A stretch of DNA of 64,000 bases, from assembly GCA_963664225.1 (NCBI GenBank), contig OY760937.1, positions 1,184,001-1,248,000 of the forward strand. The letters are read 5' to 3'. Positions 25,279 through 54,927 of this stretch are shown in pieces. Origin of the DNA: Verrucomicrobiia bacterium. GTDB lineage: Bacteria > Verrucomicrobiota > Verrucomicrobiia > Limisphaerales > UBA1319. Numbering within the stretch: position 1 is the stretch's first letter; the number at the start of each line of letters is the position of its first letter. A program made the position numbers and the translations under genes. The notes below the pieces were generated by a model. That model had not been told where the DNA came from. It worked only from the letters and a program-made list of their open reading frames with translations, and searched no databases.

Positions 25279-25354
25279 GGGCGATTGGCGCAGCGGTTAG
25301 CGCGTCTGCTTTACACGCAGTAGGTCGGGGGTTCAAATCCCTCATCGCCCACCA
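25279..25354 (+). tRNA. tRNA-Val (anticodon TAC)
   Basis: Acceptor GGGCGAT/ATCGCCC, anticodon loop TTTACAC, GTTCAAATC T-loop, encoded CCA; 76 nt. Confidence 0.96.
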
Positions 25355-51526: not shown

Positions 51527-52189
51527 ATGCAAGAACCGATTGTGATTGCCATCGATGGCACCAGTGCCAGCGGCAAGAGCACCAATGCGAAATTGGTGGC
51601 TGCCGCCATGGGTTTCACCTATGTGGATACGGGGGCGATGTATCGCACCCTGGCTTGGTATTGTTTGAAGAACAATATCAGTGTCGATGATGGCCAGGCG
51701 GTCGCCAATGCTTGTCGGCGTTGGAAGACCAAACTGGTTTGCGAGGCTAGGCAGGTGAGACTTTTGGTCGATGGCTACTATCCGGCAACCGAAATCCGGA
51801 CCTCCGAAACGAGCGCCGCCGTGGCTCGAGTGGCCGCAGTTCCCAAGGTGCGGGAGTGGATGAAGAAGAAGCAGCGCGAATGCGCTCTCTTCGGCGATCT
51901 GGTGATGGAAGGCCGGGATATTGGTTCCAATGTGTTTCCCGAAACCGATTATAAATTCTACCTCGATGCAACCTTGGGTGAACGTTCCAGACGGCGCGAA
52001 GCCGAAGGCGTGCTTGAAAATCTGGCCGAACGCGATAAACGGGACAGTCAACGGGCGACCGCTCCATTAATGATCCCGCTGGGGGCCATGGTGATCAATA
52101 ACTCCGACATGACTTCGGAGCAAACGAGCGCATTGATCATTGCCGAGATGAAACGTCGGTTGACCGCGGAGGGAGGCCGCTCCCGGTGA
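51527..52189 (+). CDS. cmk: Cytidylate kinase
   Basis: IAIDGTSASGKST, DTGAMYR, VMEGRDIG, RDKRDSQR. Confidence 0.94.
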   Translation: MQEPIVIAIDGTSASGKSTNAKLVAAAMGFTYVDTGAMYRTLAWYCLKNNISVDDGQAVANACRRWKTKLVCEARQVRLLVDGYYPATEIRTSETSAAVARVAAVPKVREWMKKKQRECALFGDLVMEGRDIGSNVFPETDYKFYLDATLGERSRRREAEGVLENLAERDKRDSQRATAPLMIPLGAMVINNSDMTSEQTSALIIAEMKRRLTAEGGRSR

Positions 52190-52836
52190 GTAGGGGCATG
52201 AACTTGAGTTACACGATCGGGTGGCATTGCTTTCGCGCCATTTTGCTCGTGTACTTTCGATGGAAAACATACAACTATGAGCGTGTTCCGCTAACCGGTC
52301 CGGTCATTCTCGCCTCCAGCCACACCAGTTTTCTCGATCCACCCCTGGTGGGGGTGGCCATTCACCGGACCATCAATTATCTCGCTCGCGAGTCCCTCTT
52401 CCGATTTCCGATCATGGGGTGGGTATTGCGTTCGTGGAGTTGCGTTCCGGTGAATCGGGAAGGTGGAGGCGCTTCCGGTCTTAGGGCGATTCTGGATCGC
52501 CTGCACCGCGGAGGAGCTATTTTACTGTTTCCTGAAGGCACCCGATCCCCTGATGGAAAGCTGCAACAGGCCCGTGCCGGCGTGGGTTTAACGGTCATCA
52601 AATCCAGCGCTCCAGTCATTCCTGTGCGGGTGTTTGGCACTTATGAGGCGTATGGCAGGCATATGGTAATTCCCAGGCCCTACCGGGTCGCCGTCAAATA
52701 TGGCCACCCATTGGATTTCAAGGCCCTTCGGGCGGAAGCGGCGGTATGCGATAAACCGCGTTTAAAGGCGATTCACCAACAGGTGGCCGATGAAATCATG
52801 GCGGCGATCGCCGCCTTGCAGCCCGGATGGGATTGA
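52186..52836 (+). CDS. plsC: 1-acyl-sn-glycerol-3-phosphate acyltransferase
   Basis: HTSFLD (HX4D), FPEGTRS; GTGA overlap with cmk. Confidence 0.88.
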   Translation: MSRGMNLSYTIGWHCFRAILLVYFRWKTYNYERVPLTGPVILASSHTSFLDPPLVGVAIHRTINYLARESLFRFPIMGWVLRSWSCVPVNREGGGASGLRAILDRLHRGGAILLFPEGTRSPDGKLQQARAGVGLTVIKSSAPVIPVRVFGTYEAYGRHMVIPRPYRVAVKYGHPLDFKALRAEAAVCDKPRLKAIHQQVADEIMAAIAALQPGWD

Positions 52837-52920
52837 CTGGAGCTGCTCCAAATAGAGGTTCAAGCAGGGCGTGCAGTCAGCCGCCGTCCGTGATCAGGAC
52901 GCACATCAATGCGGTCCTTT

Positions 52921-53565
52921 GTATGATCGGGTCGGGTGCCAGGGATTTCGCCCCGGCACCCTCCCACACCACCGGACGTGCGGTTTTCTCGCATCCGGCG
53001 GTTGGAACATTCAGAGTTCTTCCTTCCCAGTCGTGCAGACATGTGACCCCGGAATACTTCGACGGGTTGGGCGCTTCCAGCGTTGGGCCCGCCGTTTGCC
53101 AGTGCCAGGATGGTAACCGTAATTGTTGCGTCCTGTTGCTTCATTCCATCACTCGTCCTCATGTCCAACGCCTTGGTTGGCTCCGTTTGTTCCTTCGGCC
53201 CTTCGCTCCTCCCGGCTTTCACCGGGCCTCATCACTACTATGGCCTCTGCTGACTTCTGTCCCGCTCTCACGGGACAGATCTCTCTGGGTCGGTATTGAC
53301 TCTGTCGGCGCGCGCCGCCGGGCTCTACCTGATGCGTTTGGATGACCTTTGGGTTTCGCCGTTACTCGCCAGCTAACCCACGCACCCGGCCTCACTGCCC
53401 GTTCGTGTTCCTACGGTCGCGCCTTTGCTCTCGGCCCTTTCGCGTCCGACCCTCGCGGATCGAACCTGGCCTACCGCTACGGTTGGCGTCACCGCCCCCG
53501 TTGGGCTCCTTTCATCCCAATAGATCCAATACCTGCCAGACACACGAGTCCCGGCTTCAGCCGGG
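52921..53565 (+). repeat. REP-like palindromic element split by the intron (left piece 52921-52925, right piece 53546-53565)
   Basis: Removing the intron rejoins GTATG|GAGT-CCCGGC-TTCA-GCCGGG: a short conserved-looking foot plus GC hairpin, with no poly-T tail. Confidence 0.6.
52926..53545 (-). mobile_element. ORF-less class IIC group II intron (620 nt)
   Basis: Minus strand: 5' GUGUG; IIC-type DII/DIII junction AGAAGUCAGCAGAGGCCAUAGUAG...AGCGAAGGGCCGAA; DV ACCGCCGGAUGCG-AGAAAAC-CGCACGUCCGGUGGU with CGC triad (52968-53002); DVI stem with A at -7 (52932) and 3' end CCGAU; no RT ORF fits in the ~190-nt DIV. Confidence 0.9.
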
Positions 53566-53650
53566 GCGGCCATCGCATCGCAGAAGCGCTGGAAGTCGGC
53601 CATCCCCTCGAAATTCAAATTCCCGCTGAATGCTCCCCCCATCTTCCGTG

Positions 53651-53746
53651 CAACCCGGAACGGGTTGTAATCATTCAGACCCGGGTTGCCCGCCGAGGGC
53701 TACCCGGGGTCCCACGTCCCTCAGAAGTCCAACGCTGTAGGCGTTG
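53651..53746. repeat. Cluster of three short palindromes (second REP/BIME-like unit)
   Basis: CAACCCG-GAA-CGGGTTG; CCCGGGTTGCCC-GCCGA-GGGCTACCCGGG; CAACGC-TGTAG-GCGTTG. Confidence 0.6.
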
Positions 53747-53821
53747 AATCAAATCCCATTCCCATCTGACTAGCGTTTATCAATTGTCAATTATCCATTC
53801 ATCATTCCCATTATCCATTCA

Positions 53822-54808
53822 TCAAGGAGCGTCCTGATCCAATTCCGAGGTTTTCATTTGAGCGGCCTCGAGCTTTATGTAATTAAGGAGGACGGGGGCA
53901 AGAATCATTCCCGTAATGCCCATGAGCCTTTCACCGACAATCAATCCAATAAGCGTGAGCCAGACCGGGTTGTTGATCCGTTCCCCAATGATTTTGCTGT
54001 TCAGAAAATACTCAAGTTTGTGAATCGTGATCAGGAAGGCCAGAGCCCAAAGAGCCAGGTTGGGGCTGACCGTGAAAGCGACACCGACGATGATTGAATT
54101 GCTGATCAAATTCCCGGCAATGGGTACCAATCCACAAAAGAACGTGGTGAGAATGACCAATGGGCCGAAAGGAAGGTGCGCGATCAGGATAAATATTGAG
54201 GTTAATCCGGTATTGATGGTGGAAATTGTTAATTGGGCGCCCATCACGGTTTCGAAGGATTCGTAAAGAGCGCGAAATCGATTGGCAATCTCGCTGGATG
54301 AGGCGGTATAAATATTGTTCTTGATCCGATAATTTCTACGGTTCAGATCCATCGCGGGACTTAGAAAAATGCTCACCGAGCCAACGATGCCGATAAGCAG
54401 AAATACGCATTGTTTTGCAGTCGCTTTGGCAAAGACAAAGATACTTAAGAACTGAAGCTCATTCTTCGCGTAATCCATGGTGAATGCCTTCAAGCTGATC
54501 ATATCCGTGAATGGAAGTTCCATTCCATGATCGCTGGCGAATTGGATGATCAAGGGAACTGCGGTGGCAAAAACCTTTGGCAACGTCTTTGCCGCATGAT
54601 CCACAAAATAAATCATCAGCGCGCCAACGATCGTAACGATGGCAATGTAGGCGCTGATGGTCAGCCACTTGTAACGCAATACCGTCAGTTTATTGAGGAC
54701 AAAGTAGCAAAACAGGGTGGTGATCAATAGCGTGCCCAACCCTCCCCATCCTGCGAGAACCAGAACTGCCCCGAGCAAAATATATGAGTTGCGCTTCGAC
54801 GATGTCAT
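53822..54808 (-). CDS. AI-2E family transporter
   Basis: Multi-TM; AQLTISTINT, LVPIAGNL, IHKLEYFLNSKIIG, GMILAP. Confidence 0.85.
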   Translation of the reverse strand: MTSSKRNSYILLGAVLVLAGWGGLGTLLITTLFCYFVLNKLTVLRYKWLTISAYIAIVTIVGALMIYFVDHAAKTLPKVFATAVPLIIQFASDHGMELPFTDMISLKAFTMDYAKNELQFLSIFVFAKATAKQCVFLLIGIVGSVSIFLSPAMDLNRRNYRIKNNIYTASSSEIANRFRALYESFETVMGAQLTISTINTGLTSIFILIAHLPFGPLVILTTFFCGLVPIAGNLISNSIIVGVAFTVSPNLALWALAFLITIHKLEYFLNSKIIGERINNPVWLTLIGLIVGERLMGITGMILAPVLLNYIKLEAAQMKTSELDQDAP

Positions 54809-54927
54809 TGCAGGCCGACTGTAGCATAGTGGCTTTGCAAAAACAATGAAATGTGGTCCGCTTGCAGGAATCAGGGACCGCCAGCGCACTGTAAGACGTT
54901 TGACATAAACAGTTAATGGGGTTTTGA

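Follow-up and report, generated by a model that had tools for sequence, protein, structure and literature searches.

What sustains a bacterial group II intron that encodes no protein of its own? The question is raised by a locus in a 64,000-nucleotide (nt) stretch of the genome of a Verrucomicrobiia bacterium (order Limisphaerales; contig OY760937.1 of assembly GCA_963664225.1, positions 1,184,001 to 1,248,000), hereafter the window. A first-pass annotation, made from the sequence alone, had proposed a complete-looking group II intron without an open reading frame (ORF) between a plsC gene and an AI-2E gene. ORF-less introns are described as rare in bacteria and nearly always co-resident with a related intron that does carry the gene for an intron-encoded protein (IEP) (PMC4424553, PMC3245105), and it has been suggested that such derivatives do not persist for long (PMC4424553).

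Here we find on the minus strand of the window, from 53545 to 52926, a group II intron of 620 nt that is complete except for an ORF. We conclude with good confidence that it is a non-autonomous group IIC intron, probably helped in trans by the IEP of a full-length copy (FL) in the same genome, and that it is a chimera in which an old ORF-less domain IV (DIV) sits in the resident core. Group II introns that lack an ORF form a known but rare kind, of which this is a further member.

A complete group IIC ribozyme without an ORF

The proposal of a complete intron was borne out by searches with Rfam models. The element matches RF02001 (group-II-D1D4-3) with 84.7 bits over 53462-53294 (gathering threshold 32), and RF00029, which covers DV and DVI, with 44.7 bits over 53003-52926 (gathering threshold 40). 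Its minimum free energy (MFE) fold consists of six successive domains (DI to DVI, Table 1) at -264.5 kcal/mol (z = -6.98), and none of 20 shuffled sequences is as stable. In an alignment of the intron and 12 relatives (13 sequences), compensatory changes are found in 50 of the 80 pairs predicted for DI-DIII. Compared with FL, the ORF-less ribozyme shows no disabling change. The element is a group II ribozyme that retains DI-DIII, DV and DVI complete.

The intron begins with GUGUG at 53545 and ends with AU at 52927-52926, and these termini are the same in all four genomic copies. In the RF00029 alignment the DV triad reads CGC at the position of the AGC consensus, the DV bulge comprises 2 nt, and DVI carries an A at -7 from the 3′ end. 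All of these signs had been picked out in the first-pass annotation and are present on the minus strand where it had placed them. Its estimate of about 190 nt for DIV was likewise accurate (intron 353-542, 190 nt).

Marks of class C introns are a DV triad that reads CGC instead of AGC and a compact ribozyme, which apart from DIV measures about 400-450 nt. The present intron without its DIV measures 620 - 190 = 430 nt.

No reverse transcriptase (RT) of the intron family is encoded in the window, as had been noted before: a tblastn search with the full-length IEP over genome positions 1184001-1248000 gave no match at E<=1e-5. Six-frame translations of DIV do not match any RT of the genome either.

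One full-length copy and three ORF-less copies in the same genome

The genome consists of one contig of 5.78 Mb. The sister copies and the RT-bearing parent that the first-pass annotation had suggested looking for are both found there. The ORF-less form is present in three copies at unrelated loci with 0-2 differences between them: copy A, which is that of the window, copy B at 3175532-3176151, identical to A, and copy C at 1795259-1795878, with two differences from A. The single full-length copy, FL, spans 1879 nt (genome 2134364-2136242) and is identical to A at 98.6% of positions over intron 1-358 and at 98.8% over intron 537-620.

FL contains an uninterrupted ORF of 416 amino acids with a YADD motif (FL positions 536-1786), which is followed by 10 nt. 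The encoded IEP matches TIGR04416 (group II RT/maturase) with 404 bits and has the Pfam domains RVT_1 and GIIM with no endonuclease domain. Among solved structures its best match is the GsI-IIC RT (6ar1; 484 bits, versus 125 bits for LtrA). The best solved match and the domain content would place this IEP in the class C RT lineage. Its nearest relatives are found in metagenome-assembled genomes (MAGs) of Acidobacteriota and Verrucomicrobiota (58-77% identity), followed by Bacillota (about 50%).

The FL IEP would be the natural helper because the ribozyme core of FL is about 99% identical to that of the ORF-less copies. An alternative is that the ORF-less copies are served by another resident RT, by host factors or by self-splicing alone. 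The genome is indeed rich in candidates, with at least 23 other RT genes and 33 domain V matches, which comprise an 18-copy family of identical members, a 4-copy family, a 3-copy family and single copies; of these the 18-copy and 4-copy families could provide such an RT. IEPs of relaxed specificity that act as 'drivers' have been described in Thermosynechococcus elongatus (PMC2882425), and the ORF-less DIV differs strongly from the leader of its cognate full-length copy (see below). Nonetheless, the next-closest RTs of the genome are only 36% and 32% identical to the cognate IEP, identities of the other RT genes lying at 32-36%, and the introns of the other RTs have no RF02001 match, all four matches to this model in the genome belonging to the present intron family. 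The near-identical cores point to the cognate full-length copy, and we consider help from any of these other sources very unlikely.

Several features of the surrounding DNA were observed along the way. FL lies in a locally repeated region (L104, G000:C1:2132000-2143000) with paralogous empty sites at 2138232/3 and 2140605/6, whose flanks are 93-95% identical. About 120 nt upstream of copy C (L003, G000:C1:1793759-1797378) there is a 1.19-kb repeat (positions 192-1379), probably an insertion sequence, with four other genomic copies at 93-99% identity. Replication arms could not be assigned for an analysis of strand bias, as cumulative GC skew has no turning point over the 5.78-Mb contig. The skew rises near-monotonically from a minimum at 20 kb to a maximum at 5.77 Mb and has no V shape.

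The intron targets hairpins of two repeat families

All four genomic copies are inserted 4 nt past a hairpin, and the first base of the 3′ exon is C in each case. The sequence before the insertion point is CCCGGC-TGAA-GCCGGG-ACTC for copy A, GCCGGC-TGAAA-GCCGG-GACTC for copy C and GCCGGTC-AGGA-GACCGGC-GCTC for both copy B and FL. When 14 related full-length introns are added to the four genomic copies, a hairpin precedes all 18 insertions examined.

The 5′ exon ends in a 4-nt intron-binding site 1 (IBS1), which pairs with an exon-binding site 1 (EBS1) of sequence GAGU, the 4-nt core of a GC-NNNN-AA loop in DI (Table 1). Over 12 distinct combinations of intron and site, EBS1 and IBS1 pair at 46 of 48 positions, compared to 25.4 +/- 3.8 pairs after permutation, and none of 2000 permutations reaches 46. 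For each of the three ORF-less copies, all four positions are paired. A second GAGU, at about intron 243-246, was considered as EBS1 and rejected: unlike the loop at 179-182, it does not covary with the 5′ exon.

A terminator is the usual, not an obligatory, target of class C introns, and IIC introns that target attC sites exist. In this genome the usual hairpin followed by a U-tract was not found at the insertion sites: the hairpins are followed by ACTC/CATAC or GCTC/CGAAG (the slash marks the insertion point), with no T-run. The target hairpins are parts of two repeat families, not terminators. Type-1 targets belong to a dispersed repeat (window 53546-53766), whose exact motif occurs 17 times in the genome, including 13 empty sites that continue with CAT. 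Type-2 targets number 90 hairpins, with GCTCCG coming next in 57 cases, and include about 83 empty sites. Overall, about 95 target hairpins are empty and only two sites of each type are occupied.

Many type-2 hairpins are found in tandem arrays, which are built from 85-nt or 76-nt units and hold as many as 18 of them. Every unit closes with the hairpin GCCGGTC(A/T)GGAGACCGGC, then GC(T/A)C, and has a length that is not divisible by 3. Such arrays are located at L102 (G000:C1:1989000-1991000) and at genome positions 3271764-3273207, 3241774-3242538, 3292315-3292991, 505642-506068 and 1978640-1979248, one array having 76-nt units. Only solitary copies of the type-2 unit are occupied by an intron. 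The repeat arrays correspond to no Rfam family.

The empty sites also define the intron: its boundaries are exact to the base against the roughly 95 unoccupied hairpins. Furthermore, the intron copies are 99.7-100% identical to each other compared to 75-94% for the host repeats in which they lie, and the downstream flanks of copy A are unique. Because of this difference in identity, the introns must be younger than their targets and are not passengers of duplications. We therefore regard as very unlikely the explanation that the intron is an immobile, splicing-only or decaying relic that reached three copies because host DNA was duplicated. All copies do lie in repeat-rich DNA, as this explanation would have it. 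It is at odds with the difference in identity between introns and repeats, the unique flanks of A, the base-exact boundaries, the full EBS1-IBS1 pairing of each copy and a ribozyme free of disabling changes relative to FL. The choice of target is typical of class C introns, combining a DNA hairpin, a 4-nt IBS1 that pairs with EBS1, and a C at the start of the 3′ exon.

The ORF-less DIV derives from the leader of the family ORF

We then asked where the ORF-less DIV comes from. In BLAST searches, intron positions 359-536 matched neither FL nor the rest of the genome nor any of 101 fetched loci, as if DIV were foreign or filler DNA. This candidate origin was overturned by Smith-Waterman comparisons with shuffled controls and by an alignment of leaders, in which DIV is a colinear, diverged homologue of the leader that precedes the ORF in full-length introns.

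Of 26 DIVs of the family, seven have a pre-ORF leader to which the ORF-less DIV aligns locally and colinearly with a score matched by no more than 2 of 100 shuffles. These are the leaders of L028 (z = 8.4), L037 (z = 7.5), L025, L071, L026, L027 and FL (z = 2.7). Another 2 of the 26 give marginal matches that are not colinear, and 17 of the 26 do not rise above shuffles. In the multiple alignment the ORF-less DIV is colinear through the whole leader up to the block of Shine-Dalgarno sequence and ATG. At the deletion junction, what remains of this block runs straight on into the final ~7 nt of DIV.

The leader is 178 nt long in both FL and the ORF-less DIV, counting the lineage-specific part of the latter. 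Since the FL leader has this length, its ORF occupies 536-1786 and 10 nt follow, the deletion removed almost exactly the ORF. DIV is the pre-ORF leader of the family with little else left. It keeps 26 of the 34 consensus leader pairs, compared to 28 of 34 in FL and 21-33 in the others. A relic at genome position 5031161-5031249, 92% identical, already has the ORF-less type of junction.

DIV and core have different histories

A search with DIV alone gave, among 400 other genomes of the order, one full-length match (G135) and one match of 30 nt (G396); the DIV type was not found in any of 400 other genomes sampled across the phylum, and two exact words taken from DIV, one 24 nt and one 20 nt long, have 0 matches each in metagenome contigs.

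The G135 match lies in a complete 626-nt ORF-less intron that has its own hairpin target, an EBS1/IBS1 pair of UAGG/CCUA and the same deletion junction. G135 is the genome of another family of the same order, a MAG that is 75% complete with 6% contamination.

Comparison by domain shows a mosaic. For DI-DIII, copy A is 98.9% identical to FL, 67.9% to G135 and 75.8% to L028. The respective figures for DV-DVI are 97.6%, 81.0% and 75.9%. For DIV, A is 42.1% identical to FL, 70.5% to G135 and 52.7% to L028. The parts of FL agree with one another: leader (64-65%), core (74-76%) and IEP (76-77%) are all nearest to the L028/L025 group, and because all three point to the same group, the chimera is the ORF-less element and not FL. 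The junction variants GAAGGA and CCAACC are common to A and G135 and missing in FL, which argues for points of exchange in the conserved blocks at both ends of DIV. The element is thus best described as a chimera, in which an old ORF-less DIV appears to lie in a core that the resident full-length intron supplied or homogenised, with exchange probably inside the conserved blocks where DIV adjoins DIII and DV.

A simpler history would be a recent deletion of the ORF from the resident FL, with no recombination, as in the pattern described for TeI3 or B.c.I7 (discussed below). Cores that are about 99% identical, a length of 178 nt for both DIV and the FL leader and a deletion of almost exactly the ORF are all what this history predicts. 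However, the leader is only 42% identical to that of the resident, against 98.9% for the flanking core; the same DIV and junction are found in G135 at 70.5%; and the 92% identical relic in the same genome already has the ORF-less junction. The simple deletion could be revived if the G135 element were contamination from a close relative, which is disfavoured by a core identity of 68%. Overall, we judge a simple recent deletion to be highly improbable. The first-pass annotation had pictured a non-autonomous retroelement, likened to a miniature inverted-repeat transposable element (MITE), that kept its catalytic core after losing the ORF. Its non-autonomous character and retained core are supported by the three copies and by FL with its core of ~99% identity. 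The loss of the ORF was not a recent local event, given an old DIV shared with a genome of another family.

Two further elements were noted in other genomes. In a genome of the same family, an element of ~529 nt (L010 / L019, G007:C97) was considered as a second ORF-less relative and set aside as a defective deletion product of different origin. It retains the 5′ half of DI, remnants of the leader and of the ORF start, DV and DVI, and lacks the rest of DI, DII and DIII. In a Bryobacterales MAG (L058, 929-3041), a second partial core (intron 134-353, 81%) directly follows the DV of a full-length copy and may be a tandem or nested insertion.

The ORF-less DIV is under structural constraint

The ORF-less DIVs of A and G135 are ~30% diverged, and all 51 pairs of a structure predicted from these two sequences are kept in both. 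Twelve of the 51 are kept by changes on both sides and three by a change on one side. In slid controls, for which the partners were shifted by 1-3 columns, only 33-43% of cells are paired and double changes number 0-1. DIV is also as conserved between A and G135 as DI-DIII (70.5% vs 67.9%).

In other group II introns, DIVa is described as the anchor for the maturase (PMC2882425). By analogy, an anchor for the maturase is the likeliest role of the ORF-less DIV.

From these observations, we tentatively suggest that the ORF-less DIV may be a long-lived, constrained module that moves between cores by recombination in the junction blocks, and would thereby take over the IEP compatibility and the target specificity of the resident intron. 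We hold this to be possible, somewhat short of even chances.

Several observations weigh against our interpretation of a trans-served chimera. The canonical anchor of the maturase, DIV, is only 42% identical to the leader of the proposed helper, and binding of the IEP is assumed. The DIV structure was derived from the same two sequences in which the kept pairs were counted, which inflates the percentage paired, and DIV alone folds no better than shuffles (z = -0.91). Outside evidence for the chimera comes from a single genome (G135) together with one contig of an RNA library, the DIV type having no match in 398 of the 400 genomes of the order, and the core of the G135 element is not close to the full-length copies found in that genome (71-75%). 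Finally, no contig of the four public runs examined, all of them as contigs, skips 52926-53545; the RNA-run contigs have no exon coverage.

Locus context and assembly

The intron lies downstream of the AI-2E family transporter gene and in the same orientation, and the PlsC-like acyltransferase gene is convergent to it; the Pfam matches (Table 1) agree with the plsC and AI-2E genes named earlier. The ~220-nt repeat between the AI-2E gene and the intron, whose 3′ end is the target hairpin, has 69 BLAST matches in the genome, some of them clustered (e.g. 619341-622531 and 1960184-1964318), and corresponds to no Rfam family. No terminator-like site was found in 52700-54000, and hence none between the AI-2E gene and the intron. 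Elsewhere in the window there is a tRNA gene.

Table 1. Coordinates of the intron, its domains and the neighbouring features in the window
Feature	Window position	Strand	Intron numbering	Evidence or remark
ORF-less group IIC intron, 620 nt	52926..53545	-		Rfam, fold, three copies, boundaries from empty paralogous sites
Domain I	53284..53540	-	6-262	MFE outer helix; RF02001 over intron 84-252; covariation
EBS1, GAGU	53364..53367	-	179-182	Terminal loop GC-NNNN-AA (loop 53362-53369); covariation with 5′ exon
Domain II	53252..53283	-	263-294	Fold, covariation
Domain III	53197..53245	-	301-349	Fold, covariation
Domain IV without ORF, 190 nt	53004..53193	-	353-542	Leader alignment, shuffle tests; lineage-specific part 53010-53187
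Domain V, CGC triad, 2-nt bulge	52969..53001	-	544-578 (fold)	RF00029 alignment, fold
Domain VI	52929..52965	-	580-618 (fold)	RF00029 alignment, fold
DVI bulged A	52932	-	614 (-7 from 3′ end)	Presumed branch point
IBS1, ACUC, last 4 nt of 5′ exon	53546..53549	-		4/4 pairs with EBS1
Target hairpin CCCGGC-UGAA-GCCGGG in 5′ exon	53550..53565	-		Hairpin before intron
Dispersed ~220-nt repeat copy	53546..53766	-		3′ end is the target hairpin; between AI-2E gene and intron
AI-2E family transporter gene	53822..54889	-		Upstream, same orientation as intron; PF01594, 55.8 bits
PlsC-like acyltransferase gene	52186..52836	+		Convergent; PF01553, 88.2 bits
tRNA gene	25279..25351	+		RF00005, 69.2 bits

A collapse in the assembly had been named as one way in which the ORF could have gone missing. 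We compared the locus with the contigs of two DNA-type runs, X1 and X2, which are possibly the source of the assembly and serve as a check on it, not as independent biology. In both runs, a contig of 252 nt covers 52975-53226 with 0 differences and spans both DIV junctions. Its depth is 2.0-2.6x that of the flank (25.7 vs 12.6 in X1 and 55.9 vs 21.8 in X2). Other short-read contigs of these runs span both intron ends. Because short-read contigs span both DIV junctions, assembly collapse fails as the cause of the missing ORF.

Related elements in other populations

Two contigs from RNA libraries of other studies, which report on presence only, carry relatives of the intron. The contig of X20, an activated-sludge RNA library, is of the ORF-less DIV type; over 239 nt it shows 7 differences, of which 6 fall in DIV. 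The contig of run X22 is of the ORF-bearing type. Changes in X20 and X22 fall exactly in EBS1 (53364, 53366 and 53367), where GUGC and UAGC are found for GAGU. This result hints at retargeted variants. An EBS1 of GUGC would find a pairing partner in the type-2 repeat, whose GCAC variant is common in the present genome.

The variants also bear on whether DIV encodes a peptide, in the open frame 53222->52860. The six X20 variant sites in DIV fall on codon positions 2, 1, 1, 2, 3 and 1 and so have no third-position bias, and G135 does not share the ATG; the peptide was rejected.

A possible mechanism

We propose that the intron would be transcribed together with the DNA upstream of it, possibly by read-through from the AI-2E gene. 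The 416-amino-acid RT/maturase of FL would then bind the ORF-less RNA in trans, splice it and form a ribonucleoprotein (RNP). This RNP would reverse-splice into single-stranded hairpin targets and copy the intron back into DNA, as described for class C introns (PMC12584367). Homologous recombination, gene conversion or template switching of the RT, with FL and an older ORF-less copy as the two partners, may have given rise to the chimera.

Relation to known systems

One of the closest parallels is TeI3 of T. elongatus (Mohr et al. 2010, PMC2882425), which likewise has ORF-less and related ORF-containing copies with good EBS/IBS pairing. According to that account, TeI3 is mobilised in trans by the IEPs of TeI4, one old deletion of the DIV ORF is common to its ORF-less copies, as is the case here, and small size is thought to favour proliferation. 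The T. elongatus introns, as that account describes them, are related to EcI5 and have IEPs with D and En domains, and are not of class C. Remnants of both ORF termini are reported to be discernible in them, whereas here almost only the leader and the ATG are left. Compared to what is given there, hairpin targets and an ORF-less DIV whose history differs from that of the core are particular to the present intron.

B.c.I7 of Bacillus cereus E33L (Tourasse & Kolsto 2008, PMC2504315) is another and has the same arrangement, with three near-identical ORF-less copies and one complete copy. There the ORF is described as nearly precisely removed, 13 bp at its start and 28 bp at its end being left, and activation in trans by the complete copy was proposed. 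As presented in that work, B.c.I7 looks like a recent deletion of a resident intron, unlike the present case, in which a DIV identity of 42% points to an older lineage.

In their ribozyme and IEP, the copies studied here resemble GsI-IIC of Geobacillus stearothermophilus, B.h.I1 and O.i.I1, for which no endonuclease domain, a hairpin target, a short EBS1-IBS1 pairing and a small ribozyme are described (PMC12584367, PMC4748821). In the accounts given by these sources, however, the three introns carry an ORF and their ORF-less forms are engineered constructs. The targets of the GsI-IIC type are given there as rho-independent terminators, whereas the hairpins here have no T-run and lie in dispersed and tandem repeats. 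In this respect the family resembles the group IIC-attC introns, a class C lineage described as specialised on a repeated, hairpin-forming target that is not a terminator (PMC3001079). It differs from the lineage of that description in that its targets are not attC as far as seen, and that its repeats include 85-nt tandem arrays. A full-text literature search, with incomplete coverage, turned up no account of a class C intron that lacks its ORF in nature. What is distinctive of the present element is its class C anatomy, its use of hairpins in repeats as targets and the discordance in history between DIV and core.

Significance

The genome provides a clean natural system: a single helper and three passengers share it with about 95 empty hairpin targets, and the class C ribozyme is compact at 620 nt. 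Such a system suits questions about mobilisation in trans, about the parts of DIV that a class C maturase needs and about repeat hairpins that replace terminators. That DIV and core differ in their histories suggests that recombination with local helpers can let non-autonomous introns survive in the long term, and this bears on the evolution of a shared, trans-acting splicing apparatus.

If the ORF-less DIV is indeed a module that moves between cores, it would resemble short interspersed nuclear elements (SINEs) that borrow the tails of long interspersed nuclear elements (LINEs). ORF-less bacterial introns would then persist across family-level divergence and would not be short-lived dead ends.

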